Shown piece by piece: positions 13,773-61,598 of a stretch of DNA of 64,000 bases. Below the pieces are notes generated by a model that worked only from the letters and a program-made list of their open reading frames with translations, was not told where the DNA came from and did not search any database. Position 1 is the first letter of the stretch. Every line of letters starts with the position of its first letter. Source of the DNA: Bacilli bacterium (lineage in GTDB: Bacteria > Bacillota_I > Bacilli_A > RFN20 > CAG-826); NCBI GenBank assembly GCA_024409055.1, contig JAKSUL010000005.1, positions 6,636 to 70,635 on the forward strand. The letters run 5' to 3'. A program made the position numbers and the translations under genes.

Positions 13773-13789
13773 ACTCTATGTAATAGAGT
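13773..13789. repeat. Perfect inverted repeat ACTCTAT-GTA-ATAGAGT upstream of the 451-aa gene
   Basis: Read directly. Lies 31-47 nt upstream of ATG 13742 (minus strand). Confidence 0.6.
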
Positions 13790-13796
13790 GAATGCC

Positions 13797-13810
13797 TGCA
13801 AGCGCTTTCC
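13797..13810. promoter_or_regulatory. cre / LacI-family-type operator candidate TGCAAGCGCTTTCC
   Basis: Matches the core of WTGNAANCGNWNNCW except the flanking W positions. Lies 55-68 nt upstream of ATG 13742. Confidence 0.45.
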
Positions 13811-13850
13811 TATTATTTGCATAGAAGTAAAAAAGTTTCGTAAAAAAATG

Positions 13851-13882
13851 AGAAAAAACGCCTCTTTCGGGGCGTTTTTGGG
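13851..13882 (-). terminator. Rho-independent terminator ending the long minus-strand operon
   Basis: AAAAACGCC (13854-13862) pairs with GGCGTTTTT (13871-13879). On the minus strand the stem is followed by a T-rich tract. Confidence 0.85.
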
Positions 13883-13902
13883 TAAATTATGCAAATTTTT
13901 GC

Positions 13903-14880: not shown

Positions 14881-14905
14881 AATAGAATCTCTTAAAACAA
14901 TTTGA

Positions 14906-16660: not shown

Positions 16661-16687
16661 ATATCCTCCTTTTTATATTTATAAAAA

Positions 16688-18508: not shown

Positions 18509-18517
18509 AACTCCTCC

Positions 18518-20470: not shown

Positions 20471-20481
20471 AATTGCCCTCC

Positions 20482-23565: not shown

Positions 23566-23569
23566 AAAA

Positions 23570-24481: not shown

Positions 24482-24483
24482 GA

Positions 24484-25464: not shown

Positions 25465-25482
25465 AAAACTTTTTCGCAGATA

Positions 25483-27171: not shown

Positions 27172-27215
27172 TGAAAGCCTCCTTTTTGAGAAGAATATGT
27201 ATTTGCTATGTGGAT

Positions 27216-27221
27216 ATTATA
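27216..27221 (-). promoter_or_regulatory. Candidate -10 box (TATAAT on the minus strand) for the SBP operon
   Basis: Minus strand reads aaaagtTATAATatcc, about 45 nt upstream of ATG 27171, which has its own AAGGAGG. No convincing -35. Confidence 0.35.
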
Positions 27222-27308
27222 ACTTTTAGTTAACTCCTTAAAAAAGGTGGGCAGTATTGCACTTTTTGACAAAAGAAAGGATTTTTTATCTATCCGAGAG
27301 TCAAAGAT

Positions 27309-27323
27309 TTGGAAGCGATTACA
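27309..27323. promoter_or_regulatory. cre / LacI-family-type operator candidate tTGGAAGCGATTACA
   Basis: Fits all 15 positions of WTGNAANCGNWNNCW. Lies between the GH127 terminator and the SBP operon promoter region. Confidence 0.5.
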
Positions 27324-27350
27324 AAAAAACGGCCTCGCGACCGTTTTTCG
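27323..27350 (-). terminator. Rho-independent terminator after the GH127-like gene
   Basis: AAAAACGG (27325-27332) pairs with CCGTTTTT (27341-27348). On the minus strand the stem is followed by T7. Confidence 0.75.
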
Positions 27351-27357
27351 TAATAAA

Positions 27358-33303: not shown

Positions 33304-35190
33304 ATGGAAAAATGTAAGCGCTTTGCACTAATCGGACTAGGCATCGGAATTCTTTCGGCGGCCTCTTTTGGCGTTTCTCCGATCGAAGTAAGCGCCGCGA
33401 TCCCCGACGACCGCACGCTTGCCGCCCCCTACGATCCAACAATACCGACGCTTGGCGATTATTCCGTCAACACATACATCACATCCCTTGAGCAGCTTCA
33501 GTCTTATGCCGAAGAAAACGCCGCCCGCCCCACCAATGCGATTTTATATATCAATGAAGCCGGCGCAGTCACCGATTCAAAAGGGAATTCTTTGGGAATC
33601 TCTTATAAGCTCGCTTATTCGGCATATCTTAAGAACGCTATAATCCCCTGCTTCTATATTAAAGACGCTGGGACATTAGACGCCTTCTCAACATATTGGC
33701 TAGACGAATGGAAACATTGGGATTGCTCCTTAGTTTCAGACGATCCATCTCTTCTTTTATCGGCTCGTCAAAAATTACCGATTTTACGTGGCATCCTCGA
33801 TTATTCTAAGAAGACTTTCACCGCCGCCGATTACGGATCCATGGTCAAAGAAACTCACCTTTCAATGGCCAACACCCTTATCTTTAATGACGAGCAAGCC
33901 ACATATGACACCGTTCGCTATTTCCAAGCTCGTTTCAAAACGGTCTGGGTCGATACCTCCAATTCCAGCAACATCGACACTGCTAAACAAGTTTGCCAAG
34001 GGGCGTATGGGGTAATCGTCAAAAACGCCGAAGAATCCTATAACTACCTCAAGGCTTTCTCTAATTCCGCTTATCCAAAGTCCAACTACAATCGCATTGC
34101 GTATAACGTTGCTCACCGTGGTCTCCCGCAGACAAATTACGAAAATTCCCTTGAAGGATGCATCGAAGCGTACGAAAAAGGTGCAACACACATCGAGGTC
34201 GACATCCAAGTCACCAAGGATAACAAACTCGCCATCATGCATGACGATACGATTGATAGGACCACCACGGGCACTGGAAAGATCTCCGATTACACCGCTG
34301 AAGAATTAAAAGCCTTCCGCATCGACAGCACCCTCTCCGTCCAGCTCAAAGGCGAAGGCGTGCCGATCCCGATGCTCGACCAAATCTTCTCCGAATTCAA
34401 AGGAAAAGACTTAGTGATCATCGTCGAAATCAAAACAGCCGCCACTAATGCAGTCTCTCTTCTAAAACAATACATCGAAGAAGCCGACATCGCCGATCAA
34501 GTTGTCGTTATCTCCTTCTATCCGGCTCAGCTCGTGAAGATGAAAGAGGAACTCCCTTATATTCCTTGCGCTGACTTGAATTCTTATAACCAGGGGGCCA
34601 TCGAAGGAACTTCCTTCAAAACAATAAACACCAATAATTACGTCATTGATACCAACGGTGCCGGATATACATCTTTGTTCTTAAAGACACTTGCCCACCG
34701 TGGATACGCCTCTTGGCTTTGGACATACGAAAACGTCTCAAACGTTTATACCGCTATCAAAAACGGCATAGTAGGCATCACCAATAACGTCGCCGATTCT
34801 GCCGGCCAGTGTCCGACAGGAATCGTGGTTCCAAGCGAAATAGAGACCGAATCTTTGGAGAAGTGCACAGTCGAGGCTACCGTCACCACATACACCGGTG
34901 AGCTTAATGAAAAAATCGAAGCCACGCCTTTGTTCCTTGAGAAATTAGAGGACGGCAGTTACACCGCCATTTTCTCCGGAAAATTCGATACCGGAACAAA
35001 ATCCCCACGTCTTCAGGTTTGCCTCTTCTCAGCTCCTGCCCATGTCGTGATTAAACAAAAAGACAATCCGCCGGTAAATCCGGACGGAAAAAATAGCACC
35101 ACTTTGTTAGTGGTTGGCGGAATAAGCCTTGGCGTCATTGCCTTAGGGACCGCTACATTCTTCTTGCTGAGAAGGAGGTTTAAGAAATGA
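33304..35190 (+). CDS. Secreted, C-terminally membrane-anchored protein with a glycerophosphodiester phosphodiesterase (GDPD) domain
   Basis: AHRGLPQTNYENSLEGCIEAYEKGATHIEVDIQVTKDNKLAIMHDDTIDRTT is the GDPD signature. N-terminal signal peptide and a C-terminal TM LLVVGGISLGVIALGTATFFLLRRRFKK. The N-terminal ~230 aa are unassigned. Confidence 0.85.
   Translation: MEKCKRFALIGLGIGILSAASFGVSPIEVSAAIPDDRTLAAPYDPTIPTLGDYSVNTYITSLEQLQSYAEENAARPTNAILYINEAGAVTDSKGNSLGISYKLAYSAYLKNAIIPCFYIKDAGTLDAFSTYWLDEWKHWDCSLVSDDPSLLLSARQKLPILRGILDYSKKTFTAADYGSMVKETHLSMANTLIFNDEQATYDTVRYFQARFKTVWVDTSNSSNIDTAKQVCQGAYGVIVKNAEESYNYLKAFSNSAYPKSNYNRIAYNVAHRGLPQTNYENSLEGCIEAYEKGATHIEVDIQVTKDNKLAIMHDDTIDRTTTGTGKISDYTAEELKAFRIDSTLSVQLKGEGVPIPMLDQIFSEFKGKDLVIIVEIKTAATNAVSLLKQYIEEADIADQVVVISFYPAQLVKMKEELPYIPCADLNSYNQGAIEGTSFKTINTNNYVIDTNGAGYTSLFLKTLAHRGYASWLWTYENVSNVYTAIKNGIVGITNNVADSAGQCPTGIVVPSEIETESLEKCTVEATVTTYTGELNEKIEATPLFLEKLEDGSYTAIFSGKFDTGTKSPRLQVCLFSAPAHVVIKQKDNPPVNPDGKNSTTLLVVGGISLGVIALGTATFFLLRRRFKK
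33313..33327. promoter_or_regulatory. cre / LacI-family-type operator candidate TGTAAGCGCTTTGCA inside the first codons of the GDPD gene
   Basis: Imperfect palindrome around GCGC, with one deviation from WTGNAANCGNWNNCW. Positioned +10 to +24 relative to the start codon of a leaderless gene. Confidence 0.4.
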
Positions 35191-36650
35191 AAAATAGATT
35201 CATTTTAGGTTTATTGATCACCTTTGCCCTTTCTTCTTGTGGCCAACAATCACCCGTTTCTTCTGCCCCAGAAAGTGCGGTCAGCGAAAGCTCGTCTTCC
35301 CTTTCTTCTAGCGAAATAGAGAACAAGGCTTTGAAGTTCTTCTCCTCGAATTCATTGGGAACTCCAGTAGAACGCCCTTCTTCCCTACCTTCTTTCGCTC
35401 CAAAACTTTTTGACAAAGATTCACTATCGATAGAAAACTCCAGAAAACTCGGTGAAGGCGTTAACCATTTAGTTTATTCGTTCAATTTGAATTCCGGTAA
35501 TAACGTGAAGGCTAACGTCATTGCCGTCGACATGCAAAAAGCCTCTATTCACACCACTTCCGCCGGAACGATAGACACGGTAAATAATCAAATATCCGCC
35601 TATGAGACCGCTCATCCCGACAAAAAAGTCATGGCAGGCGTGAACGCCGACTTCTTCCCAACGGGAACAGGCGGCTCATGCGTCAATGCTTACGTCAAAG
35701 ACGGAAAGATCATCAAAGCGGGTCATAACGACAACGGCGTCTATGACTATAGAGATCCAGCAAGCGACGTACCGGCCTCTAACCCGATGCTGCTTGGTGT
35801 CGACTCAATACACGCCCGCATCGCTCCTATTGTCGAGAACAAAACAAAAGAGGAAACGATCAAGTCTAAATTCCAATACACGGTCTATTCATCGGACCAG
35901 CAAGACACCCCAAAGGAATTGGACGGAAAGATAACGTTCAACGCTTCCAATATAGGAACAGCCGATTACGACCTAGTAATCAACGGAACCAAGTACGTAA
36001 GCGAAGAAAATCAAACATTGGTCAAAATTCATTTGATCAATGATTCAGAAGCCTCCTTCGTCTACGGACAAGTCGAAGAAGTCAGAAAACTTCAAGGAGA
36101 ACGTATATCCACATCCTTGGATTTAGATAAAGGATATGTCTATCTCTTCGCAAAAGAAGGCGCCCAAAGGAAATTCGCCACTGGCGATTACGTTGGATAC
36201 GCCGCTAGAAATGACGATGGAAAATGGTTCGGATATTCAAACATCATCGGTGGTCGTCAATCATTGGTCGAACAAGGCGAAATCCCATCAACCGTCGCTT
36301 TGGAAAACACCAACGGCGCCCAAAGAACCAATATCCCACGTACATGTGCAGGCATAGCGTGTGATTCCACTTTATATGTAGTGGCAATTGAGGCGCTTAG
36401 ATACGGAAATAAATCCACGTCCACTTCCGACCCATACGGAGTTTCGCTTCCAGAGCTCGCCGAATTCATGCGTTACATCGGTTGTTACGAAGCCCTTAAC
36501 TTCGATGGAGGCGGATCAACTCAGCTCATCACTTCGGATAAAGACGGCACCGGAACGAAAACGCTAAGCGTCCGTAGCTCCGATTACGGCACATACGATG
36601 TCAACGAAGTCAGGAAGGTTTATAACACCCTCCTCATTACAACCAAATAA
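35187..36650 (+). CDS. Lipoprotein with a phosphodiester glycosidase (NAGPA/DUF2233-like) domain
   Basis: Lipobox LSSCGQ. The RTCAGI...GVSLPELAEFMRYIGCYEALNFDGGGSTQL block matches the family signature. ATGA overlap with the GDPD gene stop. Confidence 0.75.
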   Translation: MKNRFILGLLITFALSSCGQQSPVSSAPESAVSESSSSLSSSEIENKALKFFSSNSLGTPVERPSSLPSFAPKLFDKDSLSIENSRKLGEGVNHLVYSFNLNSGNNVKANVIAVDMQKASIHTTSAGTIDTVNNQISAYETAHPDKKVMAGVNADFFPTGTGGSCVNAYVKDGKIIKAGHNDNGVYDYRDPASDVPASNPMLLGVDSIHARIAPIVENKTKEETIKSKFQYTVYSSDQQDTPKELDGKITFNASNIGTADYDLVINGTKYVSEENQTLVKIHLINDSEASFVYGQVEEVRKLQGERISTSLDLDKGYVYLFAKEGAQRKFATGDYVGYAARNDDGKWFGYSNIIGGRQSLVEQGEIPSTVALENTNGAQRTNIPRTCAGIACDSTLYVVAIEALRYGNKSTSTSDPYGVSLPELAEFMRYIGCYEALNFDGGGSTQLITSDKDGTGTKTLSVRSSDYGTYDVNEVRKVYNTLLITTK

Positions 36651-36695: not shown

Positions 36696-38912
36696 ATGAA
36701 CAAGAAATTGTTTGTACTAGCTAGTGTGTCCTTGCTCTTAGGACTTACAGGCTGCTCCAATCAGGGAACCTCCACCGGCTCGAAAGAAAGCGGCGGAGAG
36801 ACCAGCCAAGCAAGTACTCCAGTTACCGTGACTTACCGCGTCACATTCGATTCTGACGGCGGTTCAGAAGTCGCCCCTCAAACTGTCGAGGAAGGAAAGA
36901 AGGTTACAAAGCCTACTGACCCAACCCGTCCAGGAAGAGTCTTCGAAGGATGGTTTAACGGCGAAAACGAATGGAATTTCGATATCGACGTCGTCACTGC
37001 CGACATCACCCTCAAAGCCAAGTGGAAGCTCAATGTTTCCCCGGTCCTCGAAGATGCTCTCACCCCAATCGCCATCAACGAAGATAGCGAAATGACCGTT
37101 TGGACTAGAGGAAACTTCGAAGTCACCTCTGATAGCGGACATTGGTTCATCAATGGTTCGATCAAAGCCGACTGGAAGACCATGATGGTCTTCGACGGAG
37201 ACGGCAAAATCTGCTGGGGCGTTTGGTGCCCAGCCAATGGTTTTGGAGGCCCGGCTTCTTACGCCTACGTCCATAACTTCGATTACTCAATCAGCAAAGC
37301 CGGATGCCAAGGCAACCCGGCCTTCGAATTCGGTGAGCATTTCGGCACCGACAGCAAAGACTTCAAGATCGTCGTCCCAGAAGGCGGATTCGCTTTAACC
37401 TCAATCGGCGAAGGCGGAATCAACTCCGGCCGCATGGTCGGCTTGATCTCCGGCGGAGAGCACACCGAAATCGGTGAGCAATTTGGATATGGTCCGGAAT
37501 TCAACACCCCGAACTGTCAGTGGTCCAACCGCACCATGAAATACGACGCCGAAGAAAACCGCGTCAACGTCTATTGCCTCGCTACTTCCATGACCTTCAC
37601 CGGCAGCAAATCCGGCGTAGCCGTCGGAAACGCCGACACAGGCGAATACGCCGTCACCGTCGGACTAGCCAAAGGCAACAACGTCACATTCAAATACGAT
37701 AACGGTATTAGAGCTTCCGTCCTCAAAGGCGACAAGTTCACATTGACCGGTGCCCCAGAGGCGACAATCGACTCCGAAGACAATTCGATCATCAGAGTCT
37801 CGAAAACCGGAAACTACACATTCACGTATAACGTCAATACCAAAACGATGGACGTCGTTCTCGTTGAAGGTGGCGGAGACAAAGGCATCCTTTTAGAAGC
37901 CCCTGTTAGCGACGTTAACGCCGATGGAAACCTCGCTATTTGGACCGAACAAGGCACCAAGCTCCACGAACCGAGCGGATGGACAATCGGAAACGGTTGG
38001 AGAACATACATGGTCATCGATAAAGACGGCAGATTGATGTATTACTGCTACAACCCGCCGAATGGATACGGCGGACCGACTGCCGCTTCCCGAAACTACC
38101 ACTCCATGTACGCCGACGGCACCACCAACCCAGCTGTCGAATTGCTTCCTGGATTCGGACCGTGGGAACCCGGTGGAACAGCCCATAACCAGTGGAACCT
38201 CGTGATTCCGGAGGGCGGATTCGCCATCACCGCTATGGGTGAAAACGCCAGCGCCATCACCGGTGTCTTAACCGGAGGCGCCGTTGACGAATTAAGCGAT
38301 GCCACAATCGCCGCCGCCAACAAGCACTACGAAGCCGCCGATAAAGTCCGCTTCGTATACGATGCCAGTGCCCGTAAGTTGACCTTAAAAGAAGAAGGAT
38401 CAACCCCAACGGCCAAGGCTCAAGCCAAGATCGGTGCCGCAACTATCGATATGCCGGCTATCTACGATGAGTCTCACGGAAACATCACCAAATCCGACTA
38501 CACAATCGGCGTTGATGAAAACGGAACAATCATCTTTGCTTCCTACACTGCCGATGGATACGGCGGACCGGCTGACGGTTTCTACCACGACGGAAATTAC
38601 GTTTGTGTCCCAGGTCAGCAGTGCGGTGTCTTCTTCGTTCACGAAGACTTCGCCCCGTGGGCCCCAGGAATCGAAGGCGCCCCGTGGAATAACTACGACA
38701 TCAAGGCTGCCGCCGGAATGCGCATCATCACCGGAAACGCCATGCAAATGGCCGGCATCATCGAAGCCCTCTTCGAACAGGATGTCTATTCCATGGAAAC
38801 CAATACGTATTTCGAAAGAGAGCTTGAAGACGGAGAACTCAACGAAAAGAAAGTCTCCTTCACTCCGACCGCGGAAGATGCGACCATCGTCGACATCACC
38901 GTCACCAAATAA
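36696..38912 (+). CDS. Lipoprotein: Listeria-Bacteroides (Flg_new) repeat, three copies of an unassigned NGYGGP domain, one small beta-sandwich-like module
   Basis: Lipobox LTGCSN; GAAAGGA RBS. YRVTFDSDGGSEV...FEGWFNGENEWNFD...TLKAKW is the Listeria-Bacteroides repeat. Domain copies lie at roughly aa 120-295, 398-566 and 578-738. Confidence 0.85.
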   Translation: MNKKLFVLASVSLLLGLTGCSNQGTSTGSKESGGETSQASTPVTVTYRVTFDSDGGSEVAPQTVEEGKKVTKPTDPTRPGRVFEGWFNGENEWNFDIDVVTADITLKAKWKLNVSPVLEDALTPIAINEDSEMTVWTRGNFEVTSDSGHWFINGSIKADWKTMMVFDGDGKICWGVWCPANGFGGPASYAYVHNFDYSISKAGCQGNPAFEFGEHFGTDSKDFKIVVPEGGFALTSIGEGGINSGRMVGLISGGEHTEIGEQFGYGPEFNTPNCQWSNRTMKYDAEENRVNVYCLATSMTFTGSKSGVAVGNADTGEYAVTVGLAKGNNVTFKYDNGIRASVLKGDKFTLTGAPEATIDSEDNSIIRVSKTGNYTFTYNVNTKTMDVVLVEGGGDKGILLEAPVSDVNADGNLAIWTEQGTKLHEPSGWTIGNGWRTYMVIDKDGRLMYYCYNPPNGYGGPTAASRNYHSMYADGTTNPAVELLPGFGPWEPGGTAHNQWNLVIPEGGFAITAMGENASAITGVLTGGAVDELSDATIAAANKHYEAADKVRFVYDASARKLTLKEEGSTPTAKAQAKIGAATIDMPAIYDESHGNITKSDYTIGVDENGTIIFASYTADGYGGPADGFYHDGNYVCVPGQQCGVFFVHEDFAPWAPGIEGAPWNNYDIKAAAGMRIITGNAMQMAGIIEALFEQDVYSMETNTYFERELEDGELNEKKVSFTPTAEDATIVDITVTK
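38121..38201 (+). repeat. 81-nt segment about 91 percent identical to 40106-40186
   Basis: Hand alignment gives 7 mismatches in 81 nt. It includes identical runs cttcctggattcggaccgtgggaacc and gcccataaccagtggaacctc. Confidence 0.7.
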
Positions 38913-38956
38913 TTCGAATATTCATTAAAAACATATAAATAAGAAAGGAGTTTGCA

Positions 38957-40384
38957 ATGAATAAAAAATTTCTCTTTCCGTTAGTCGCTTCTTTACTCGT
39001 TTTAAGCGCCTGCGGAGGAAACGGCACCAGCTCTAAACAAGAGAGCTCCCAGCCAAAATCCGAGCCGACCTCTCAACCGACATCCGTCCCAACATCAGAA
39101 CCGTCTTCCGATCCGACATCCGTCCCAACTTCCGAAGAAACAAGCGAATCCTCCGAAGTGACCAGCGAGTCCAGCGAACCGGTCGTCACCAAAGTCGACG
39201 CCGTCGTTCGCTCTGGCGAAAACATCCGCTCCGAAAATACCCTTGAAGAAACAGAGGAGGGTTCCGGAGTCTTCGTCGGAAACATCGTCATGACCCAATG
39301 GAACAGCGTCGAATTCACATTCGGCTCAACCGTCTTGGCATTCGGCTCAGTCAATCTTGAAGGACTTTTCTGCGAAACAACTGGCGCCGATTGGACCGAC
39401 AAGCTCTACGTGGACAACGTAGGCGACACCAGATTCTTCCGCGGTGTGACCGGCGAAGTCACCTACAAGATCACCTACACCGCCGAAACCAACACCCTCA
39501 AAGCCGAGCTTGTTATCATGAACAAACTCAGCGATGCCGGCGCTCCAGACGGCGGAGTCATGCTTGATCCGCAGGCCGACGGAACCTTCACCGAAACCCG
39601 CGTCTTGAAACAATGGAATCGTTTCCAGCTTAAATACTACGACGCCGAAGGAAATAGCGTCGACGTGAACCCGGACAATACCGATGTCAGCGGAGATGCT
39701 TATGCCACTTATGGCGCCTCCACCACATATCACGTCTACTATGACGAAGGAATCTTCTGCACTGAGCTCACAAATAACGGAAGATACACATTCGTCTACA
39801 CCCCGGCTAACGGCACCACAAAGGCCACCCTTGTCTTCACGGCCGATAGCGGATCCGATCCTTCAGTCGCTCTCTCGTTAGCAGTCGCTTCCACCTCCGC
39901 CGACACCACAACAACCGTTTGGGCCGCAGGAACCATCGTTCACAACCCAGACGCCGTTTGGGCCGTCAAAACCGGCAACGGTTGGAGAACATATTTAGCC
40001 GTCGATTCCGAAGGACGTATCGCTTACTATTGCTTCAACCCGGCCAACGGCTACGGAGGTCCGGACGGAACTTCCTACAACCGCCATTCCGCCTATGCCG
40101 ACTACACCACCAACCCAGCAATCGAAATCCTTCCTGGATTCGGACCGTGGGAACCGGGTGGAAGTGCCCATAACCAGTGGAACCTCAAAGCTCCGGAAGG
40201 CGGCTTCATGGTCACCGGATACGGAGACGATATCGCCCAAGTCATCGGTGTTGTTACTGGCGGAGAGGCCAGCGCAACCACTGCCGAAGGCGAAATCAAC
40301 AAATATTACGCCGCCATCGATGACGTTCGTGTCGCTTACGACGCCGAAGGAGGCAAGCTTAACTTCTCCGTCGTTAACAAATAA
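38957..40384 (+). CDS. Lipoprotein: S/P/T/E-rich linker, two small beta-sandwich-like modules, one NGYGGP domain
   Basis: Lipobox LSACGGNG; AAAGGAG RBS. C-terminal GNGWRTYLAVDSEGRIAYYCFNPANGYGGP...LPGFGPWEPGGSAHNQWNLKAPEGGF parallels the upstream gene. Confidence 0.85.
   Translation: MNKKFLFPLVASLLVLSACGGNGTSSKQESSQPKSEPTSQPTSVPTSEPSSDPTSVPTSEETSESSEVTSESSEPVVTKVDAVVRSGENIRSENTLEETEEGSGVFVGNIVMTQWNSVEFTFGSTVLAFGSVNLEGLFCETTGADWTDKLYVDNVGDTRFFRGVTGEVTYKITYTAETNTLKAELVIMNKLSDAGAPDGGVMLDPQADGTFTETRVLKQWNRFQLKYYDAEGNSVDVNPDNTDVSGDAYATYGASTTYHVYYDEGIFCTELTNNGRYTFVYTPANGTTKATLVFTADSGSDPSVALSLAVASTSADTTTTVWAAGTIVHNPDAVWAVKTGNGWRTYLAVDSEGRIAYYCFNPANGYGGPDGTSYNRHSAYADYTTNPAIEILPGFGPWEPGGSAHNQWNLKAPEGGFMVTGYGDDIAQVIGVVTGGEASATTAEGEINKYYAAIDDVRVAYDAEGGKLNFSVVNK
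39077..39129 (+). repeat. 17-nt perfect direct repeat ccgacatccgtcccaac (x2, 36-nt period) inside the S/P/T-rich linker
   Basis: Copies at 39077-39093 and 39113-39129, each encoding PTSVPTS. Confidence 0.7.
40106..40186 (+). repeat. Partner of the 38121-38201 near-identical segment
   Basis: See 38121-38201. Confidence 0.7.
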
Positions 40385-40427: not shown

Positions 40428-40453
40428 GAAGAGGCGCAACGCCTCTTTTTTTC
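40428..40453 (+). terminator. Rho-independent terminator, preceded by a second small hairpin at 40416-40430
   Basis: AGAGGCG, CAA loop, CGCCTCT, followed by T7. The upstream hairpin is TTCGGA-TCA-TCCGAA. Confidence 0.85.
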
Positions 40454-40568: not shown

Positions 40569-42062
40569 ATGAAAAACAAAACAATTCTCCTTCTTTCTGC
40601 CCTTACTCTCACTGGCCTTCTTGCCAGCTGTGGGGGAAACGGCACCAGCTCCAGCAAAAGTCAAACCATCGAACTTGTCGATAATCGTCAAGAGATTTAC
40701 ACCACCGTCATCGGAGAGATGAATCACGGTGTATTCGAAAGTTACGACGAGGACAAGGATTACAAATCACTTTACGAAGCCGTCCAGGCTTGCCTTGAAA
40801 ACGGTGAGGCCGGAAGCTATGTCTACCGCAAAGGCGGAGACGCTAAGAAACCAGCTTTCGTCAAACAGCAACGTTCCGACGACTATTGGTACTACTACAA
40901 AGACGGAAACGTCGCCGAAGGATACGCTCCTTACATGGTCGGGGACGTCGATTGGTATAGAGGACAAAACTACACCCGTATCCAATCTTCCGGCGGATAT
41001 GCCCACGCCACCTACCAGCCATACGCTTTGAAGGGACACGAAGGCAAATCCACCCAGTCTTGGAACCGCCTCCCGCTCCTTGATGGTGCCGTTAGGTACA
41101 ACCCACACGCTTTCACTGGCATTCAGGACACCACCTACACATTCAACCTTTCCAAAGCCAAGATCCGTCCTTCCTATAGCAAAGATCAAAAAGCCATCCC
41201 GATGGTCGGACTTTCCACCACCGACTCCTACAACTGGTCCAACCAAGGCATCTACATGGATACCGTCAACGGCAACTGGTATTACTTCTATGGAGAAACC
41301 CAATCTGATTCCAAATCTCTCGAATACGAAGAAGAATTGATTATGACTTCTTCCTGGGATCAGGCCGCTCAAGAATTCACTCCGACTAACGATGTCAGAA
41401 TGACCTTGAATATGTATCAAGACGAAGAGGAAGATTTCGTTTCCAACAAATTGAAGATCGAAATCCTCGAAAACGGAAATGTCATCAAGACCATCGACAA
41501 AGAATACGAACTCAACACGATGACGATGCGTGGAACTCATCGCGCCCAAATCGCCATTGACTTAGTCCCGACCGACGAAGATAACGAAGAAGCTTCCATG
41601 ACTCCGGACTATATGTGCGGTGCTTACTTCAAAAACGCTATCGTCGCCGAAGGAAAAGGATCCGTCCGCGAAGGACTTACCGACGAAGAATACATGGGTG
41701 ACACCGATATGTGCTGCGAGCCAGGACACACTTACGACCTCACCTACGCTAAAGGCGGATACTCCAACGACTCCGATACCGAAGTCATCCTCGATAACTG
41801 CACCGCCATCTCCTATAGCGATGCTAATGCCGGCTGCGACACCTGGAACATCAGCTTCGAGCAAGTTGCTCCGACCGTCGACCGCACCGAAACCATCGCT
41901 TCTGTCGAAACCAAGATCGAAGCCATTCCGGACGGCGCTGATCTCGATGATCCAAAAGCCGCCGCGGCTTACCTCGCTTGGGAAAAACTCTCCTACGATC
42001 AGCAGCTCATCATCACCGAAGTCGACCACATCACCAAACTCAAAGATATCATCGGTGACTAA
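40569..42062 (+). CDS. Lipoprotein of unknown function (497 aa)
   Basis: Lipobox LASCGGNG; GAGGA RBS. Rich in aromatic and acidic residues. No motif recognised. Confidence 0.8.
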   Translation: MKNKTILLLSALTLTGLLASCGGNGTSSSKSQTIELVDNRQEIYTTVIGEMNHGVFESYDEDKDYKSLYEAVQACLENGEAGSYVYRKGGDAKKPAFVKQQRSDDYWYYYKDGNVAEGYAPYMVGDVDWYRGQNYTRIQSSGGYAHATYQPYALKGHEGKSTQSWNRLPLLDGAVRYNPHAFTGIQDTTYTFNLSKAKIRPSYSKDQKAIPMVGLSTTDSYNWSNQGIYMDTVNGNWYYFYGETQSDSKSLEYEEELIMTSSWDQAAQEFTPTNDVRMTLNMYQDEEEDFVSNKLKIEILENGNVIKTIDKEYELNTMTMRGTHRAQIAIDLVPTDEDNEEASMTPDYMCGAYFKNAIVAEGKGSVREGLTDEEYMGDTDMCCEPGHTYDLTYAKGGYSNDSDTEVILDNCTAISYSDANAGCDTWNISFEQVAPTVDRTETIASVETKIEAIPDGADLDDPKAAAAYLAWEKLSYDQQLIITEVDHITKLKDIIGD

Positions 42063-42067
42063 GATTC

Positions 42068-43513
42068 ATGAAAAGCAACGCAATCAAAAAATATAGAAAG
42101 CTTTTGCTTCTTGCACCGTTAACCATTCTCGTCGCTTGCGGACAGGGCGGAGGAAACACTTCCGCCATTTCCAGCCAGCAAACTGTGGAGTCGACCAGCG
42201 TCACCAATCCGGTGATCATCGAACTCAAGAGCGCTTCACAGGAACCAGTGGAACTCGTGGCCCCTTTCACCATCTACACCCCAGACGGAGAAACCCCGGT
42301 TCTCACAACCGACAAGACTGGACAAAAAACGTCCAATATCCCGACTCAATACGACAATCTATACGCCGCCATCAGAGTCGCCGGAAGCAACGCGACTTCC
42401 AAGAACGCCCTTCAAGTCCAAGACGCCAATAACGTCCAGGTTTTCAAACGCGCCAAAGTCTCTCAATGCTATGTCTTTGATGGAGATAAGTACGTCGGAA
42501 CCTCGGGACAATCCACAGCAAAAGCCTATTGCACAGCCCATCCAACCGCTTACGCCGTTAACGGCAACGCCTCCGATTACTATTACTTAGGAAGGCACGA
42601 CATGGTCGAAGGACAATCCGTTAAGGAAGACGTCCTCGAAACCAATGCCGGCGCCTACAACTACATGTTCTCCAAAGGCGGATCGGGCGGAAAAGATTAT
42701 GGTTACCGTTATGCCACCGCCGATGTTCACCTCTCCGAAACGACATACCGCGTCGGAGAAGACGAAAGCACCTGGAACGCCTACATATTCATCAATATGC
42801 ATGAGCACATCCTATCCGACCTCGGCTTAATCGGAACTTTGCGCGGAAACGAAGTCCGCTGGTATTTGGTCCGCAACTGCAGCTCCGCCATGCATACCGC
42901 CGGAACAAGCTCAATCGAGCACGACGCCAAATTCTTCGTGTATCAAGACACGACGAAATATCCGAACTGCATCGTGACGAAATCGACCAAATACGATGCC
43001 ACCACCAAAACTTATTCCGGATTTGATGATCTTCACTTCGAAGCTTTCACCCAAAACGACGGTTGGACATTAAACATCACCAACCTTCGCACTGGAGTCG
43101 TCTCCACGATCGAAGACCACCATACACAAGACGGCCACGCCCTCGAGGAAAACACTTCTCCAAATACCGGACGTGCCCTCATCGCCGCTTCTTATTGCCC
43201 GGTCATCGGAAATATCTGGAACTGGGATTCCGGCGCGGCTCTCAACAACGTTGTTTGGGATAACATCAGCCTCAAGAAAGCTATCGTCGACGATAGTGGC
43301 GTTATCAATAACGATATCGAAGCCTATCGTAACGAAACCGTTTCATACCCGCTTTATCCAGGAGAAGACGCCTATCGCGACGGATATTCCCAAGGCGGAT
43401 ACAAAGCCAGCCACGAATTTGGCACTCGCCAAGAAGGTGGCGAATATAAGAGTGGTATAAAATATACCGCCGGACAAAAATACCTTTCCTTTTCCGTTGA
43501 TTACGGAAAATAA
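42068..43513 (+). CDS. Lipoprotein of unknown function (481 aa), possibly a distant paralog of the preceding gene
   Basis: Lipobox LVACGQGG. Lies 5 nt after the upstream stop. Weak colinear similarity to the preceding gene (YKSLYEAVQAC versus YDNLYAAIRVA). Confidence 0.8.
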   Translation: MKSNAIKKYRKLLLLAPLTILVACGQGGGNTSAISSQQTVESTSVTNPVIIELKSASQEPVELVAPFTIYTPDGETPVLTTDKTGQKTSNIPTQYDNLYAAIRVAGSNATSKNALQVQDANNVQVFKRAKVSQCYVFDGDKYVGTSGQSTAKAYCTAHPTAYAVNGNASDYYYLGRHDMVEGQSVKEDVLETNAGAYNYMFSKGGSGGKDYGYRYATADVHLSETTYRVGEDESTWNAYIFINMHEHILSDLGLIGTLRGNEVRWYLVRNCSSAMHTAGTSSIEHDAKFFVYQDTTKYPNCIVTKSTKYDATTKTYSGFDDLHFEAFTQNDGWTLNITNLRTGVVSTIEDHHTQDGHALEENTSPNTGRALIAASYCPVIGNIWNWDSGAALNNVVWDNISLKKAIVDDSGVINNDIEAYRNETVSYPLYPGEDAYRDGYSQGGYKASHEFGTRQEGGEYKSGIKYTAGQKYLSFSVDYGK

Positions 43514-43533: not shown

Positions 43534-45234
43534 ATGAAAAACACAAAGTATCTTAGAATCTTCTCGCTTGCGACCATGATCGGAACCGCCCTCACGTCTT
43601 GCGGCGGAGGAATCGGTGATTTCGAGCCGGATTTAAATGTCGACGTCACTAAGCACGACGACATCACTTTGAGCGTTTATCTGCCCTCCTTTGGGTGCTC
43701 AAACGAAAAGGTCAGCAACGGAGTCCTTTCCCGCGCTCTCCAAGAAACCACGACTTACAAAGTCAATTTCAATCAGCTTTCCGAATCGGCCGCTGATACC
43801 GAGATCAATTCTCTCCTTTCAATGAAGGAAAAGGTCGACGTTTTAAAATGCGCCCCGACCGTCTTCAACAACTACGTCACCGATGGGTATTTCACCAACC
43901 TCACTGAGCTCGTTAAGAAGTACGGAGACACACCGGTAGACGAAAAAGGAACCAAGTTCGTCGATTTGTTCACGAAAGAACAATGGGAAGCCTGCACCTA
44001 CGATGGCAAAATCTACGCCATCCCAGAATACGGTCACACCGCAATGTGCAACAGCACCTTAGCCTGGAACCGCGATCACTTGAAAACCGTCGGCATTGAA
44101 AAAATTCCGGAAACCCTTTCCGAATTCGACGCCGCCGTTCGTGCTCTTCAAAGTCATTTCGGCGCGATCAACAATTCATACCACGCCTTCGGCTTCACCG
44201 GTAACATCGCTCAAGATAACCCGATCTCCCCGGCATTCAACGTCCCTATGCAGTGGTACGAAGATAACGAAGGCAAACTCCAAAGCATGCTTAACTCCAA
44301 GGAGATGGAAAACTATCTCCGCTATATGAACGACCTCAAGAGAAACGAAGTCATCGTCTCTGACTGGGTCGGTTTGACCGAAGTCAATGCAATTGATTCT
44401 TTCGTCAAAGAGAACTGCTCCGTCTTCGTTTCCTCCTATTGGAACATCAAGTCCCTCCGTTCCGCTCTTGTCGCTTCTTATAAATCCTTCCCATCCTCAG
44501 TCGTTTCAAAGTCTGACAAAGAAGCTTATGTCCACGGTGGCAAGGAACGCACCGCTTTGAAAGAAGACGCTTTAGTTTCCTGGAGAATCGGATTAAGAGG
44601 AGACGGAAGTCACTCTTCCGCCGACCAAAGCAAAGCTATGTTCCGCGATAACCGTACCGTCGGATATTTCATCACCGTTCCGGTCGCCACCGCGAAACGT
44701 TCCGCTTACTCAATGGATTGGATGATTCGCAAGAACACCGAAGAAGCCACCAAAATGATGGTTGCCGGCAAAGAAGGCGTCCATTTTGACTACACCACCG
44801 AGGATGATCCAGACGCGATCAAACTCCTCACCGAAACTCCGACATACGTTAAGAAGTACGATGCCTTCGACGAAGACATCTCAGGCATGTCTCAATTCCA
44901 GACCGGAGTCTATTGCGACGTCGCCAGGCAATGGTGGCCAATCGCTGAAGCCGGATTCGACGCCTGGCCGGTCCTTATCCTTGATGAGCAAGGAAAAGAA
45001 GACCTCTCCCGCGTCATCGGCAATCCTTTCGCCATGCACCCGGTCATTCAGTCCTATTCGAAGTATGACTTGAAGGCTCAGAACTACGTCATCACCAAAG
45101 TTCAAAGCGTCATCAACTCCAGGGATAACGATACCTTCGATTCCCGTTTAAGCTCTGCTCGCAGCGAATACAAGACCAAGTATTACGACAAGTTCGAAAA
45201 AGACATCAACTCTTGGTACCGCTCCAGCAAATAA
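43534..45234 (+). CDS. Extracellular solute-binding lipoprotein of a sugar ABC importer (large ~560-aa class)
   Basis: Lipobox LTSCGGG; AAGGAGG RBS. Directly upstream of two permeases. Confidence 0.85.
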   Translation: MKNTKYLRIFSLATMIGTALTSCGGGIGDFEPDLNVDVTKHDDITLSVYLPSFGCSNEKVSNGVLSRALQETTTYKVNFNQLSESAADTEINSLLSMKEKVDVLKCAPTVFNNYVTDGYFTNLTELVKKYGDTPVDEKGTKFVDLFTKEQWEACTYDGKIYAIPEYGHTAMCNSTLAWNRDHLKTVGIEKIPETLSEFDAAVRALQSHFGAINNSYHAFGFTGNIAQDNPISPAFNVPMQWYEDNEGKLQSMLNSKEMENYLRYMNDLKRNEVIVSDWVGLTEVNAIDSFVKENCSVFVSSYWNIKSLRSALVASYKSFPSSVVSKSDKEAYVHGGKERTALKEDALVSWRIGLRGDGSHSSADQSKAMFRDNRTVGYFITVPVATAKRSAYSMDWMIRKNTEEATKMMVAGKEGVHFDYTTEDDPDAIKLLTETPTYVKKYDAFDEDISGMSQFQTGVYCDVARQWWPIAEAGFDAWPVLILDEQGKEDLSRVIGNPFAMHPVIQSYSKYDLKAQNYVITKVQSVINSRDNDTFDSRLSSARSEYKTKYYDKFEKDINSWYRSSK

Positions 45235-45240
45235 CGTTTT

Positions 45241-46236
45241 ATGGAACTGCTCGCCAAAAAAGTAAAGCTGATCAGGCCAAAGCAAGAAGGCTATTGGCAC
45301 CGACTCGGCATTAAACTCAAGAAATACCTCCCGATCATGGCATTCATCGTGCCAGCGGCCTTCATGGCCGTTTTGTTCGGTTATATCCCTCTCATCTTCC
45401 TTCTTGCCGCGTTTAAAACGAACTTCAATCTTTCCATTTACACACCTTTCCAGGCTTTATTCAGCCCGAACTGGTCGTTTGTTCAATTCACCAAGATATT
45501 CGGCGAAAACGCCGACGAATTTTTCTTGGCGTTAAAGAATACTTTGGTCATCAACGGAATCAAGTTGGTTTTAATCTTCCCGATACCGATCATCATCGCC
45601 ATCATGCTTTCGGAAGTCAAAAACGCGACTTTGGCAAAGTTATTCCTCATCATCCTTTGCCTTCCTAACTTCTTGTCGTGGCCAACCGTCATCGGTATTT
45701 GGCAAAACTTCTTCCGCCAATCTGACGGTGTCATCAACTCCATATTCGGAACCAACATCGGGTGGCTAACCTCCGATAACGGGCCTAACGGAATATCTCT
45801 TTTCCGTTTCTTCGTCATATCTTTTGACGCTTGGAAAGGATGCGGATGGAATTCCATCATGTTCTACACCGCTATCGTGTCCATCGACAAATCCTATTAC
45901 GAAGCGGCTGAACTCGATGGCGCCAACAAGTTCCAGCAAACTTTGCGTTTGACCTTACCGTCCATCTTCCCAACCATCGCCCTTATGTTCATTATGAACA
46001 TCACCTACATCCTCTCCTGCGGCTTCGATGAGATCAACCTCTTGGCTAACCTCGACCCGAACTGGAAGTTATACGAAACCACTTTGGACTATTACTTGTA
46101 TAACCAAGCCTTGGCGGAGAACGCAGACTTCTCTTACGCAACGGCGCTTGGCCTATTCAACTCAACGGTCTCATTGACATTCATGTTGGTGGGCAACTCA
46201 TTCTGCAAAAAATTCTTGCACAGGGGGCTTTGGTAA
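45241..46236 (+). CDS. Carbohydrate ABC transporter permease (LplB-like)
   Basis: EAA loop EAAELDGANKFQQTLRLTLPS; polytopic. Confidence 0.9.
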   Translation: MELLAKKVKLIRPKQEGYWHRLGIKLKKYLPIMAFIVPAAFMAVLFGYIPLIFLLAAFKTNFNLSIYTPFQALFSPNWSFVQFTKIFGENADEFFLALKNTLVINGIKLVLIFPIPIIIAIMLSEVKNATLAKLFLIILCLPNFLSWPTVIGIWQNFFRQSDGVINSIFGTNIGWLTSDNGPNGISLFRFFVISFDAWKGCGWNSIMFYTAIVSIDKSYYEAAELDGANKFQQTLRLTLPSIFPTIALMFIMNITYILSCGFDEINLLANLDPNWKLYETTLDYYLYNQALAENADFSYATALGLFNSTVSLTFMLVGNSFCKKFLHRGLW

Positions 46237-46237
46237 T

Positions 46238-47122
46238 ATGATTCACAAGAAGCACCTTAAAAAACTAATTAGGAAAACAAAAGGGGACCGTTTATTCCTC
46301 GGCCTTTCTTATGGCTTCTTAATTTTCTTCAGCATCCTCGTCATTTTGCCGATCATGAACCTCATTTCCTTCTCCTTAACTCCGGAAGGAAATAACGCCT
46401 ATGTTCGCTTTATCCCTGAAGGATTTACCCTTAGCTATTTCGCCTATTTCTTCAAAGATAGCCAATTCATCACCTCTTTCGGGAATTCGGTCCTTTTGAC
46501 CGTCGGCGTCACAATCGTCTCTAACGTCTTTATGGCTTTGGCGGCTTATCCTCTTTCTAAGCCGGACCTCCCGATGAAAAAACCGATTTTGGTTTTCTTC
46601 ATCATCACCATGCTTTTCGGAGCCGGCATCCTTCCGACCAAATTCATGTTGCAGGGCCTTGGAGTTCTAGGAACCCTCTGGGGCATATTCCTTCTCTCCA
46701 TCAATAACGTCTTCAACATGCTTCTATACAAGTCCTTCTATGAGGGCTTACCGAAGGAGACTATCGAAGCGGCCGAAGTCGACGGAGTCAACAACATCCA
46801 GCTCTTCTTCCGCATCGTTCTCCCAATGTCGCTTCCGGTATTCGCGTCCTGCTGCTTCTTCACCATCGTCGGCACATGGAACGCTTATTCCAGCGTCTTG
46901 ATGTTCGTCGGTTCCACCCACCCCGAATCCTGGACTCTTTCTTACTACATCTATTACTTGGTCTCTCAATTCAACCCGACCGGAAGCTCAATCATCAAGA
47001 CAACCAACTTGGTCAACTATCAGTCGGCTTCAATTGTCATCTCCACCATCCCGATCCTTTTGATCTATCCGTTCATCGTCCGCTATATCAAATCGGGCAT
47101 TACCTTAGGAAGCGAAAAATAA
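46238..47122 (+). CDS. Carbohydrate ABC transporter permease (LplC-like)
   Basis: EAA loop EAAEVDGVNNIQLFFRIVLPM; polytopic. Lies 1 nt after the upstream stop. Confidence 0.9.
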   Translation: MIHKKHLKKLIRKTKGDRLFLGLSYGFLIFFSILVILPIMNLISFSLTPEGNNAYVRFIPEGFTLSYFAYFFKDSQFITSFGNSVLLTVGVTIVSNVFMALAAYPLSKPDLPMKKPILVFFIITMLFGAGILPTKFMLQGLGVLGTLWGIFLLSINNVFNMLLYKSFYEGLPKETIEAAEVDGVNNIQLFFRIVLPMSLPVFASCCFFTIVGTWNAYSSVLMFVGSTHPESWTLSYYIYYLVSQFNPTGSSIIKTTNLVNYQSASIVISTIPILLIYPFIVRYIKSGITLGSEK

Positions 47123-59278: not shown

Positions 59279-59320
59279 AAGAAAATGCCCCTTCTTTTTA
59301 TAAAAGAATTTGGGTTCGAC

Positions 59321-59333
59321 TATAATTACCTTA
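59321..59333 (+). promoter_or_regulatory. Leaderless-type promoter (-10 TATAAT 7 nt from ATG 59334)
   Basis: TATAAT at 59321-59326, spacer tacctta, then the ATG of signal peptide MKQKILSIFSLGFLLLASC. No Shine-Dalgarno. Confidence 0.5.
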
Positions 59334-61598
59334 ATGAAACAAAAAATATTAAGTATTTTTTCGTTAGGATTCCTTCTTCTAGCCTCTTGTGGAGAAGCCC
59401 ATAGCGAACCAACATCGTCTGCCACAAGCGCAGAAACATCTCTTCCTTCAAAGAAATTCGAAATTTCACAAAGCTACGTTACTGATGTTTTCTTGCCCGG
59501 CAATCCGATGATCCTCACTTCGGTCAGCCAAGACACGAACTATATTGTTTTAGATGAAGCATCAAGGATCGTATACACGGCTTCTTTCATAAGTTCCGGA
59601 TACGGAACAAGAATTCGCTCATACCACTCCCCTTCATATGATTCGGTGCTTGGGTCACTGTTCAAATCAGGGCAAGTCATTGTCTTGGAGGGAATGAGAG
59701 GATACGAAGTTCAAACAGCCGGATACGCCCAATTCGTCAGTGAGGTCAGCAACGGCGAGATCAAAGTCGAAGACGCCTATGACCCAAATGCATCGTTCGT
59801 CCCAAATTGGAACTCGATAAAAAACGGATACTTAAACGATGACATCGGAATTACCTTTGTCTCAGGAGGAGAAACAATGAATTATCGCAATAAAGAGCCA
59901 TTCCGCCTTTCTTCGATATTCGATTCTTATGACGAAAACGGACAGTCCGCTTATTTGATGGAAGTCCCGTATTCCGATTCATACGAAATCGTTTGCCCAG
60001 GAGCAGCAGAGCTCAAAGTCACCGATATCAATGGGGCCGAAATCAAAAAGGATTCAGCCTCTTTGTACACATTCCATAAAGGAGAGAAGGTGGCCGTTTC
60101 CATGAAGGGTGGCTCCTTTGAACCGTTCAATCTTTCCGTTAAAGCCAAAAATCATCTTGTCGAACTTCCTTATGAAGTTTTGAAAGGAACCAGCATATCT
60201 TCTTATGATGTCCAAGGCGACAAATCCGTCGATCCTCTCACCAGTTCCCAAATCAAAGTCGCAAAACGTGATGACGGGAAGGGTTTGTACATCAACTGCA
60301 ATAACCCAGAAGCCCTTTACGAAGATTGCCTCAACACAGTTTTGACCGGACAAGACGTTTCCGGAAAGGAAGTGTTCTTCACATATGAGCACAACAACAA
60401 AATTACCCGCACATATTACTATGGATACCGCGTCACAAACACCGGAGACACCGATATCTTCGTCACGGTCAAAAACCTCGGCAATCAAATCAAAGGCGAT
60501 GGCTCTTGGTTAGGAGAAAACGAATGGATCCAGTTCTACAACCTTCCATTCCGCGTTAAAGACTTGGATAAATTATCGGCTTCTCAAAAGAAGAATTTTG
60601 ACGCATACGTCGGCTTCTCCAATGAATACCAGCCAGAAGTACGTCAGCCTATCACTTATCGAATTCCGAAGGGAAAATACATCTACGTCATGGGCGGAAC
60701 CACAAAAGACGCCTATAAAAACATCAACGTATTTGGTTCTGCAGACGAGCAGGTTTCCTCCTCGATATCCGGATGTTCTAATGGAGCTGTCCTCTTTGAG
60801 GTAACGGGCGGCAAAGCCTTCGGCCAATTCATGGCTTACTCAGATCCAGATGCATCTACCATCAACGAGACTCCATATGTCAAAGAGCACAAGCAATATG
60901 GATATGTCATGAATATCGTTGAAGGCGGAGAGACCCATTTCACCGGAAGCCAATACGCTGGATACGAGCCAGTCCATGGCGTCGTCGACACAAATGCCGA
61001 ATGGATCATAAACGACAAGACGGCGGCCGGACCACTTCCAGTCACATATCGCAACAACTACTATTCCAACAAGCAAAAAGGTGAACCGTTCGGAAAGGTC
61101 ACCGACGTAGTTGGATACGAGAACAAGAAGGTTGCGCGTTGGATCACCCACATCAATCCAACACATACTCCGAACGCAGTCGGTACGGACATGACCAAGT
61201 ACATAACAACCAACCACGAAACAGGTGAACCAATCGTCATAGAAGCAGAGCGTTATGACGGTACCGGAAGCACCGCTAATATTGGCAACTGGATGGTTGA
61301 TTACATCGACACCATCACTTTGGTAAATCAAGGCGATAAAGAACGCGAGTTGACCTATAAGATGTCACATAATGGTGTCATATTGGCTTTCGTTCGTGAC
61401 GAAAACGGAAATATTAGCCCATCTTATCCTCTCGCTTATCAGACCCGTATCAACGGTTCCGCATACGGAGCCGCCATCGACATTCCGTTCTCCTACACTA
61501 TCAAAATAGCTCCGCACTCCGTTGCGCGCTTCTCAGTTGATTACAACTTATTGGCCAATAGTAGTGGCTACATCACCCACGAAGTTACAATTAAGTAG
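59334..61598 (+). CDS. Lipoprotein of unknown function (754 aa)
   Basis: Lipobox LLASCGE. Start trimmed from the ORF-track 59310 to the Met that begins the signal peptide. No motif recognised. Confidence 0.8.
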   Translation: MKQKILSIFSLGFLLLASCGEAHSEPTSSATSAETSLPSKKFEISQSYVTDVFLPGNPMILTSVSQDTNYIVLDEASRIVYTASFISSGYGTRIRSYHSPSYDSVLGSLFKSGQVIVLEGMRGYEVQTAGYAQFVSEVSNGEIKVEDAYDPNASFVPNWNSIKNGYLNDDIGITFVSGGETMNYRNKEPFRLSSIFDSYDENGQSAYLMEVPYSDSYEIVCPGAAELKVTDINGAEIKKDSASLYTFHKGEKVAVSMKGGSFEPFNLSVKAKNHLVELPYEVLKGTSISSYDVQGDKSVDPLTSSQIKVAKRDDGKGLYINCNNPEALYEDCLNTVLTGQDVSGKEVFFTYEHNNKITRTYYYGYRVTNTGDTDIFVTVKNLGNQIKGDGSWLGENEWIQFYNLPFRVKDLDKLSASQKKNFDAYVGFSNEYQPEVRQPITYRIPKGKYIYVMGGTTKDAYKNINVFGSADEQVSSSISGCSNGAVLFEVTGGKAFGQFMAYSDPDASTINETPYVKEHKQYGYVMNIVEGGETHFTGSQYAGYEPVHGVVDTNAEWIINDKTAAGPLPVTYRNNYYSNKQKGEPFGKVTDVVGYENKKVARWITHINPTHTPNAVGTDMTKYITTNHETGEPIVIEAERYDGTGSTANIGNWMVDYIDTITLVNQGDKERELTYKMSHNGVILAFVRDENGNISPSYPLAYQTRINGSAYGAAIDIPFSYTIKIAPHSVARFSVDYNLLANSSGYITHEVTIK

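Follow-up and report, generated by a model that had tools for sequence, protein, structure and literature searches.

A rare, unannotated domain family, NGYGGP, in lipoproteins of gut Bacilli and its possible role as a binding module beside phosphodiester-cleaving enzymes

What is the domain that occurs four times in two adjacent lipoproteins of a Bacilli bacterium, directly after a pair of genes for phosphodiester-cleaving enzymes, and what might it do there? The question is raised by a stretch of 64,000 nucleotides (nt), here called the window, from assembly GCA_024409055.1 (GTDB lineage Bacteria; Bacillota_I; Bacilli_A; RFN20; CAG-826), contig JAKSUL010000005.1, positions 6,636 to 70,635 of the forward strand. 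The domain, which we call NGYGGP after one of its motifs, is about 170 amino acids (aa) long and is a genuine, rare, unannotated domain family. On balance, we favor the view that it is a non-catalytic extracellular binding module, displayed on lipid-anchored, stalked proteins of monoderm gut bacteria. The features of the two lipoproteins, labeled A and B, are as follows, with positions given in the window and independent E values (i-E) for the copies.

36696..38912, + strand: gene for lipoprotein A, 738 aa (open reading frame [ORF] identical to MCQ2742053.1 and to family entry P0003)
36696..36755, + strand: signal peptide and lipobox LTG-C of A, Cys20 (read from the sequence)
36834..37022, + strand: Listeria-Bacteroides repeat (Flg_new, PF09479), A aa 47-109 (Pfam E=3.4e-19)
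37050..37586, + strand: NGYGGP copy 1, A aa 119-297, an NGFGGP subtype with a longer loop (i-E 1.3e-37)
37587..37889, + strand: unannotated inter-domain module, A aa 298-398, ending GNYTFTY... (covered by the BLAST alignment A325-562/B230-468)
37890..38396, + strand: NGYGGP copy 2, A aa 399-567 (i-E 1.3e-52)
38400..38909, + strand: NGYGGP copy 3, A aa 569-738, a divergent subtype (i-E 3.9e-16)
38957..40384, + strand: gene for lipoprotein B, 475 aa (ORF identical to MCQ2742054.1 and to family entry P0016)
39869..40381, + strand: NGYGGP copy 4, B aa 305-475 (i-E 3.6e-52)

The coordinates of the copies are envelopes of a first hidden Markov model (HMM) profile, while the i-E values come from a profile of 37 foreign sequences, from which those of the window were excluded to avoid circularity. 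This window-free profile found exactly four domains among the 339 ORFs of the window (A ~121-295, ~401-568, and ~575-735; B ~305-472), and BLAST recovered the same repeats by aligning A325-562 with B230-468 (45% identity, E=2e-64), A116-291 with B302-469 (27%, E=2e-15), and A604-689 with B347-430 (30%, E=2e-7). Both methods thus bear out the sequence-only reading, which had counted three copies in A and one in B; its coordinates agree within a few codons, except that it started copy 3 nine codons late (aa 578 instead of 569). Copy 2 of A is nearest to the copy of B (52 to 55% identity). Copy 3 has DGYGGP, lacks the WR, and has AAGMR replacing PEGGF, a subtype also found in family entries P0066 and P0091. 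The motifs quoted in that reading, VDxxG, NG[YF]GGP, NPA, and PEGGF, proved to be true features of the family across 237 instances.

The remainder of the two proteins is made of separate modules. A starts with a predicted lipoprotein signal peptide (MNKKLFVLASVSLLLGLTG before the lipobox cysteine), followed by the Flg_new repeat that had already been recognized as such (69.2 bits, for a cutoff of 27 bits), an N-terminal module separate from the NGYGGP domain. B has the signal peptide MNKKFLFPLVASLLVLSA before the cysteine of its lipobox LSA-C (Cys19), an S/P/T-rich stalk (aa ~20-85), unannotated modules (aa ~86-304), and finally the NGYGGP copy. The stalk had also been pointed out before, and it corresponds to a PT repeat at aa 28-62 that, with 23.5 bits, falls under the cutoff of 26.2, a weak agreement. 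Both proteins contain the pattern [LVI][ASTG][GA]C and are hence predicted to be lipidated. The "G.YTFTY" modules described earlier are present in the sequence, and the A and B versions appear related by BLAST: the last ~75 residues of the inter-domain module of A (aa 325-398) align with B aa 230-304, just before its NGYGGP copy. These modules, including A aa 298-398, had no Pfam match. The NCBI names of A ("InlB B-repeat-containing protein," from a metagenome-assembled genome [MAG] labeled Bacilli bacterium) and B ("PT domain-containing protein") derive from the N-terminal parts only, and the Pfam scan recognized no catalytic domain in either.

To size the family, a word-indexed protein search gave only 2 and then 11 matches, without names or Pfam labels, so that an exhaustive HMMER search was needed. 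Among 1.84 billion representative proteins, it retrieved 166 with E≤1e-3, of which 124 had E≤1e-10, amounting to ~237 domain instances, with one to ~8 per protein. Nearly all hosts are uncultured gut Bacilli/Erysipelotrichaceae or Clostridia, and the loci with relatives come from Bacilli or Erysipelotrichaceae MAGs of sheep colon, rabbit, and rumen, together with one Clostridia MAG.

No known family could be assigned to the domain, in line with the sequence-only reading. The NGYGGP regions of A and B matched none of the 24,736 Pfam-A models and no NCBIfam 20 model at E≤0.1, and when 41 diverse instances were compared with Pfam at E≤10, no family was matched by more than one of them. Profile searches of PDB sequences gave no meaningful match. 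A hit to the RCC1-like protein ATS1 (E=4e-4) was dismissed, being restricted to a hairpin of ~30 residues plus a Gly-turn (profile positions 28-58), and so was one to the transferrin receptor, limited to a 30-residue motif. An RCC1-like beta-propeller was also rejected, given a single such motif per 170-aa domain and a predicted model that is not a propeller. Similarity to carbohydrate-binding modules (CBMs) was absent from the PDB sequence searches, from the structural comparison with Foldseek, and from the Pfam CBM families for the 41 instances. The cell wall-binding families CW_binding_1, GW/SH3b, SLH, CWB2, LysM, and PG_binding were likewise absent from the 41 instances (E≤10) and from 57 full-length proteins (E≤1e-4). 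A literature search found the string "NGYGGP" in none of the papers that it covered.

The structure of the B copy (residues 305-475) was modeled by AlphaFold2 from a 41-sequence alignment with high confidence (predicted local distance difference test [pLDDT] 95.8, predicted template modeling score [pTM] 0.91); an earlier model from a 6-sequence alignment (pLDDT 69) was not used. The predicted fold is mixed alpha/beta, with ten strands and three helices. Foldseek detected no neighbor at E<1 among 350,542 PDB chains (best template modeling [TM] score 0.24) or in BFVD, so that the check by HMM and structure databases proposed in the earlier reading ended with no existing Pfam module matched. Based on this model, the domain possibly represents a new fold. 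The top Foldseek match, a chain of 6ozd, was not significant (E ~2, TM 0.19 to 0.24). Together with some loose motifs, it suggested membership in the NAGPA/DUF2233 family, which was rejected because the hhalign probability of the 41-sequence NGYGGP profile was 0.3% against the neighboring NAGPA protein and 0.1% against a 7-sequence NAGPA alignment, with TM scores of ~0.2.

Conservation over the 237 instances (residues numbered as in B305-475) is concentrated in P109 (100%), G49 (98%), G61 (96%), G63 and G111 (92% each), and Y53 (81%). Candidate catalytic residues are variable (D46 88%, E110 71%, and H73 <60%), and N82, N144, and D158 are conserved at ~67 to 69%. With Gly, Pro, and aromatic residues at its invariant positions, the pattern does not look enzyme-like. 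The domain is also uniformly acidic, with a median pI of 4.4, a median net charge of -11, and <1% of the instances basic.

The architectures of the family members are those of surface proteins. The lipobox pattern was present in 83 of 149 sequences starting with Met, many of which are fragments, and nearly all complete members have a lipobox followed by an S/T/P-rich stalk. In several of them (P0036, P0044, P0060, P0061, P0063, P0065, and P0072), a His-rich motif, "HEHTY..EWS.D...HWH," which may bind metal, stands right behind the lipobox. Among 57 members, the co-occurring Pfam domains were Flg_new (15), Metallophos (6), Flg_new_2 (5), collagen triple helix (4), dockerin (1), and BspA-LRR (1). 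Fusions to Metallophos, i.e., calcineurin-like phosphoesterases, rise to ~10 proteins when the GNH[DE] motif is considered, and in these NGYGGP is a single C-terminal appendage. Tandem arrays include degenerate copies. Judged by this architecture, the domain would belong to CBMs in the functional sense, as a non-catalytic part attached to carbohydrate-active or related enzymes. The lipoboxes, stalks, Flg_new and leucine-rich repeats, collagen stalks, dockerin, and location in a sugar-utilization locus are all consistent with the surface glycan-binding or glycan-processing proteins that the sequence-only reading had envisaged.

In the window, A and B belong to a run of + strand genes from 29218 to ~58400. 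The order is AraC regulator, glycoside hydrolase family 20 (GH20), SGNH lipoprotein, GDPD, NAGPA-type lipoprotein, A, and B, followed by two lipoproteins of 497 and 481 aa (lipo497 and lipo481), a solute-binding lipoprotein, two permeases, a GxDLY/SGNH esterase, and DUF4127, and then by GH31, a GFO/IDH/MocA oxidoreductase, a MalK-like ATPase, and GH36. The closest neighbors are the following.

33304..35190, + strand: extracellular GDPD phosphodiesterase, 628 aa, with a C-terminal membrane anchor (PF03009, E=3.9e-32)
35187..36650, + strand: lipoprotein of the NAGPA/DUF2233 phosphodiester glycosidase family, 487 aa (PF09992, E=2.9e-20)
40428..40448, + strand: terminator-like hairpin, 9-bp stem and T-run (from a consensus scan only; such sites are not enriched overall)
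40569-42062 and 42068-43513, + strand: two unannotated lipoproteins of 497 and 481 aa, in conserved order after the NGYGGP genes
43534..47122, + strand: solute-binding lipoprotein and two ABC sugar importer permeases, conserved downstream

GDPD and NAGPA overlap by 4 nt, 45 nt separate NAGPA from A, and 44 nt separate A from B. Because of these tiny gaps and the hairpin after B, the four genes are probably one transcription unit that ends there, as far as consensus signals can indicate; the next feature after the hairpin is a promoter-like site.

To assess whether this neighborhood is conserved, 17 fetched loci (L numbers below) were annotated with the domain HMM and the genes of the window. 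They had been found with a 7-sequence alignment, and a metagenome scan added only one, 97% identical to L006. The cassette [GDPD]-NAGPA-NGYGGP(x2-3)-NGYGGP(x1)-lipo497-lipo481-solute-binding protein-permeases-GxDLY-DUF4127 was found again in L001, L008, and L017, while L005, L006, and L011 have parts of it at the ends of contigs (L006 and L007, with 97% DNA identity, belong to one species). NAGPA adjoins NGYGGP in seven independent loci (the window, L001, L005, L006, L008, L012, and L017), four of which also have GDPD. The NAGPA orthologues across the cassette loci are only 34 to 78% identical, so the synteny has outlasted considerable divergence. In L012, the adjacent NAGPA gene is on the opposite strand, and downstream there are a GlcNAc (N-acetylglucosamine) 2-epimerase, a homologue of a 762-aa protein of the window (see below), and a Metallophos gene. 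L014 has two Metallophos genes in the GDPD/NAGPA slot and retains the downstream cassette; its NGYGGP protein (P0015) is a lipo497-like domain fused to two C-terminal NGYGGP copies. L009 contains a dockerin-Metallophos-NGYGGP protein between a SpoIID and a Peptidase_M23 gene. Overall, a phosphoester-cleaving enzyme was adjacent to or fused with an NGYGGP protein in 10 of the 14 informative independent loci. In L004 the neighbors were GH20 and SGNH, and those of L016 were uninformative. The earlier suggestion that the lipoproteins share a substrate with the GDPD/phosphodiester glycosidase pair is strengthened by this adjacency in diverged loci and by the apparent cotranscription of GDPD, NAGPA, A, and B.

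The tandem and degenerate copies, the C-terminal position after catalytic domains, the display on stalks, and the invariant Gly and Pro next to variable polar residues all point to the behavior of an accessory module. Most consistently it is found with members of three families, GDPD, NAGPA, and calcineurin-like phosphoesterases, which are unrelated but have in common the cleavage of phosphoester or phosphodiester bonds, and, as in L014, one can substitute for the others in the same slot. We therefore propose, more tentatively than the binding role itself, that NGYGGP captures a phosphodiester-bridged glycopolymer, and that teichoic-acid-like polymers are the leading candidate. Two precedents make them so: glycerol-phosphate teichoic acids are degraded by GlpQ-type GDPD enzymes (PMC7086022), and teichoic acid or extracellular DNA are the predicted substrates of extracellular calcineurin-like phosphoesterases, which are typically fused to NAGPA and to domains for carbohydrate binding or adhesion (10.1101/2024.03.27.587046). 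In such a scheme, the modules would capture the polymer at the cell surface (teichoic-acid-like or another sugar-1-phosphate or glycerol-phosphate polymer) and hold it for the GDPD phosphodiesterase and the NAGPA-type phosphodiester glycosidase; the solute-binding protein and ABC permease encoded downstream would then receive the fragments, and GH20, GH31, GH36, and the SGNH esterases would complete the degradation.

Several points weigh against this proposal. The case for binding is one of architecture and guilt by association, and the loci come from related lineages, so the synteny may be partly inherited and not selected. CBMs are typically beta-sandwiches, which the predicted mixed alpha/beta fold does not resemble. 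An acidic domain is not what one would expect to touch a polyanionic phosphodiester backbone; the expectation of a basic polyanion-binding module failed at a pI of 4.4, which counts against direct contact with the backbone, and binding would need recognition of sugar substituents or bridging cations. Finally, the module is not confined to nutrient loci. In L002 (8066-11905) and L003 (8084-11980), lipoproteins of ~1,290 aa with three to four NGYGGP copies and the N terminus "MNSKKLL...LTGC" immediately follow rpoB-rpoC, in surroundings that lack sugar genes. Their mutual identity is 39%, compared with 87% for RpoB and 81% for RpoC, and they would represent a fast-evolving surface protein that is possibly highly expressed.

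These rpoBC-linked proteins, which fall within a range of 1,200 to 2,600 aa and three to ~8 copies and are divergent, are also an argument for the most probable of the alternatives, although we consider it unlikely: that NGYGGP is an adhesion or structural module, directed to host, food-particle, or microbial surfaces, to the envelope polymers of the cell itself, or to a surface layer, and only secondarily recruited to nutrient loci. Collagen-like stalks, BspA-type leucine-rich repeats, and Flg_new, all partners of the domain, are common in adhesins, and the clostridial member between SpoIID and Peptidase_M23 is in a cell wall context. However, the members are already lipid anchored and would not need a wall anchor, and where the context is conserved, it is predominantly that of a catabolic cassette comprising glycosidases and an ABC importer. 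This alternative also overlaps with the one that we favor, both being binding roles.

Somewhat less probable still is that NGYGGP is a new catalytic domain, which would attack the polymer of GDPD and NAGPA as a glycosidase, lyase, or phosphodiesterase. In its favor are the presence of A and B, which have no recognizable catalytic domain, inside an enzyme operon, the mixed alpha/beta model, and the fairly conserved acidic and polar positions (D46, E110, and the N82/N144/D158 set). However, none of the polar positions is invariant, whereas Gly and Pro are, and arrays of up to ~8 tandem copies, some of them degenerate like copy 3 of A, as well as the C-terminal attachment to bona fide catalytic domains, are the manner of an accessory module. 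That NGYGGP is instead a very divergent lectin, CBM, or part of NAGPA/DUF2233 missed by our tools is the least probable reading of all, considering the hhalign values of 0.1 to 0.3% against NAGPA, a TM score of ~0.2 that is far under fold-level similarity for a model of pLDDT 96, the unrelated proteins found by Foldseek at the same E value as 6ozd, and a single PDB sequence match below 1e-3, the 30-residue motif of ATS1.

As a binding module, NGYGGP finds its closest counterparts in the surface glycan-binding lipoproteins of polysaccharide utilization loci, such as SusE/SusF in the Bacteroidota or the CBM-rich proteins of the Gram-positive Roseburia/Eubacterium rectale (PMC5320581). Shared features are the lipid anchor, the lack of a catalytic domain, the tandem modules on a stalk, and the location of the genes between those of extracellular enzymes and the importer, with a local regulator (AraC here). 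NGYGGP differs in showing no sequence or predicted-structure similarity to known CBM or SusE/F domains, in its mixed alpha/beta predicted fold, and in partners that cleave phosphodiesters (GDPD, NAGPA, and Metallophos) and are not endo-glycanases. The ~10 members fused C-terminally to calcineurin-like phosphoesterases recall, at the level of the calcineurin-like family, the accessory domains of the ShfP radiation of these enzymes (10.1101/2024.03.27.587046); the partners listed there (LTD, Ig, LamG, FN3, SLH, discoidin, cadherin, CW_binding, and PQQ) do not include NGYGGP. With the system by which Bacillus subtilis scavenges teichoic acids, made of GlpQ (GDPD family) and PhoD (PMC7086022), the operon of the window has in common an extracellular GDPD, which in that organism acts on a glycerol-phosphate polymer; unlike the window locus, that system is not known to include binding lipoproteins of its own, a NAGPA enzyme, or a cassette for sugar import. 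The NAGPA/DUF2233 family itself (PF09992; 3ohg, 6ozd, and 6pkg) is a constant genomic neighbor and has loose local motifs in common (a DGKI hairpin and NP), but as seen above NGYGGP is not a member. Thus, a Gram-positive utilization locus with surface binding lipoproteins is a known arrangement, and what is new is the module and the apparent substrate class.

If the proposal is right, NGYGGP would be a new recognition module, possibly with a new fold, for abundant and poorly studied phosphodiester-linked glycopolymers of the gut, e.g., teichoic acids, and would mark a conserved catabolic cassette, with surface components that are almost wholly unannotated, in uncultured Bacilli of the herbivore gut. 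Small, soluble, and confidently modeled domains of this kind offer a handle on polymer capture by Gram-positive gut bacteria, and they could help to find a substrate for the functionally little-understood NAGPA/DUF2233 enzymes of bacteria. At the very least, a new domain-family entry is merited. Besides NGYGGP, the conserved locus holds at least three further unannotated lipoprotein families. More speculatively, and with considerable doubt, NGYGGP might be the founder of a set of new-fold binding modules specific for teichoic acids or other phosphoglycans which, with the lipo497, lipo481, and 762-aa families, would mark a so far unrecognized "phosphoglycan utilization locus" used by uncultured gut Bacilli to forage on the cell wall polymers of other microbes. 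Searches with lipo497, lipo481, and the 762-aa protein were of no help in identifying the substrate: neither lipo497 nor lipo481 matched anything in Pfam, NCBIfam, or the PDB or resembled the other, and the 762-aa protein had no solved relatives.

The 762-aa unannotated lipoprotein (59310-61598, + strand) has an optional N-terminal module (aa ~55-190) that holds an NGYGGP-like core, listed here as a possible fifth instance.

59535..59768, + strand: possible fifth, degenerate and shortened NGYGGP-like core, aa 76-153 of the 762-aa lipoprotein (hhalign; low confidence)

This core reads "YIVLDEASRIVYTA..SSGYG..SYHSPSY..VIVLEGMRGYEV" and was aligned by hhalign with a probability of 35 to 51% (E 1.5e-4 to 4e-4); HMMER with the window-free profile did not detect it among the 339 ORFs. 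The N-terminal module is missing from the L012 and L014 homologues. Homologues of the remaining core of the protein adjoin NGYGGP genes in L004, L012, and L014.

The two enzymes upstream of A have large parts outside their annotated domains. In the GDPD protein, the Pfam domain covers only aa 271-495, leaving the first ~265 residues and aa ~500-590 unannotated, and a C-terminal transmembrane anchor takes the place of the lipobox. The NAGPA-type lipoprotein matched PDB chains 3ohg (1e-11) and 6ozd (1e-5); NAGPA chains in the PDB match aa 133-184 and the Pfam model aa 324-459, with an unannotated stretch between them, so that the catalytic domain appears to be split. The MalK-like ABC ATPase (53220-54977, + strand) is unusually long, with 585 aa, and its ABC_tran match spans aa 72-293 for a profile of 137 positions, which implies a large insertion. 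Near the end of the run, 57157-58392 (+ strand) encodes a 411-aa multi-pass membrane protein with no Pfam match; its homologue in L004 is conserved beside the 762-aa-protein homologue and the AraC regulator. Scans of the window for Rfam families and tRNAs found nothing. On the other strand (12387-29175, -), a second, divergently oriented sugar locus contains two ORFs of 584 and 451 aa without a Pfam match along with GH127, a solute-binding protein and two permeases, a 1,040-aa surface Ig-like protein, DUF4838, a Big_2 protein, and GH130.

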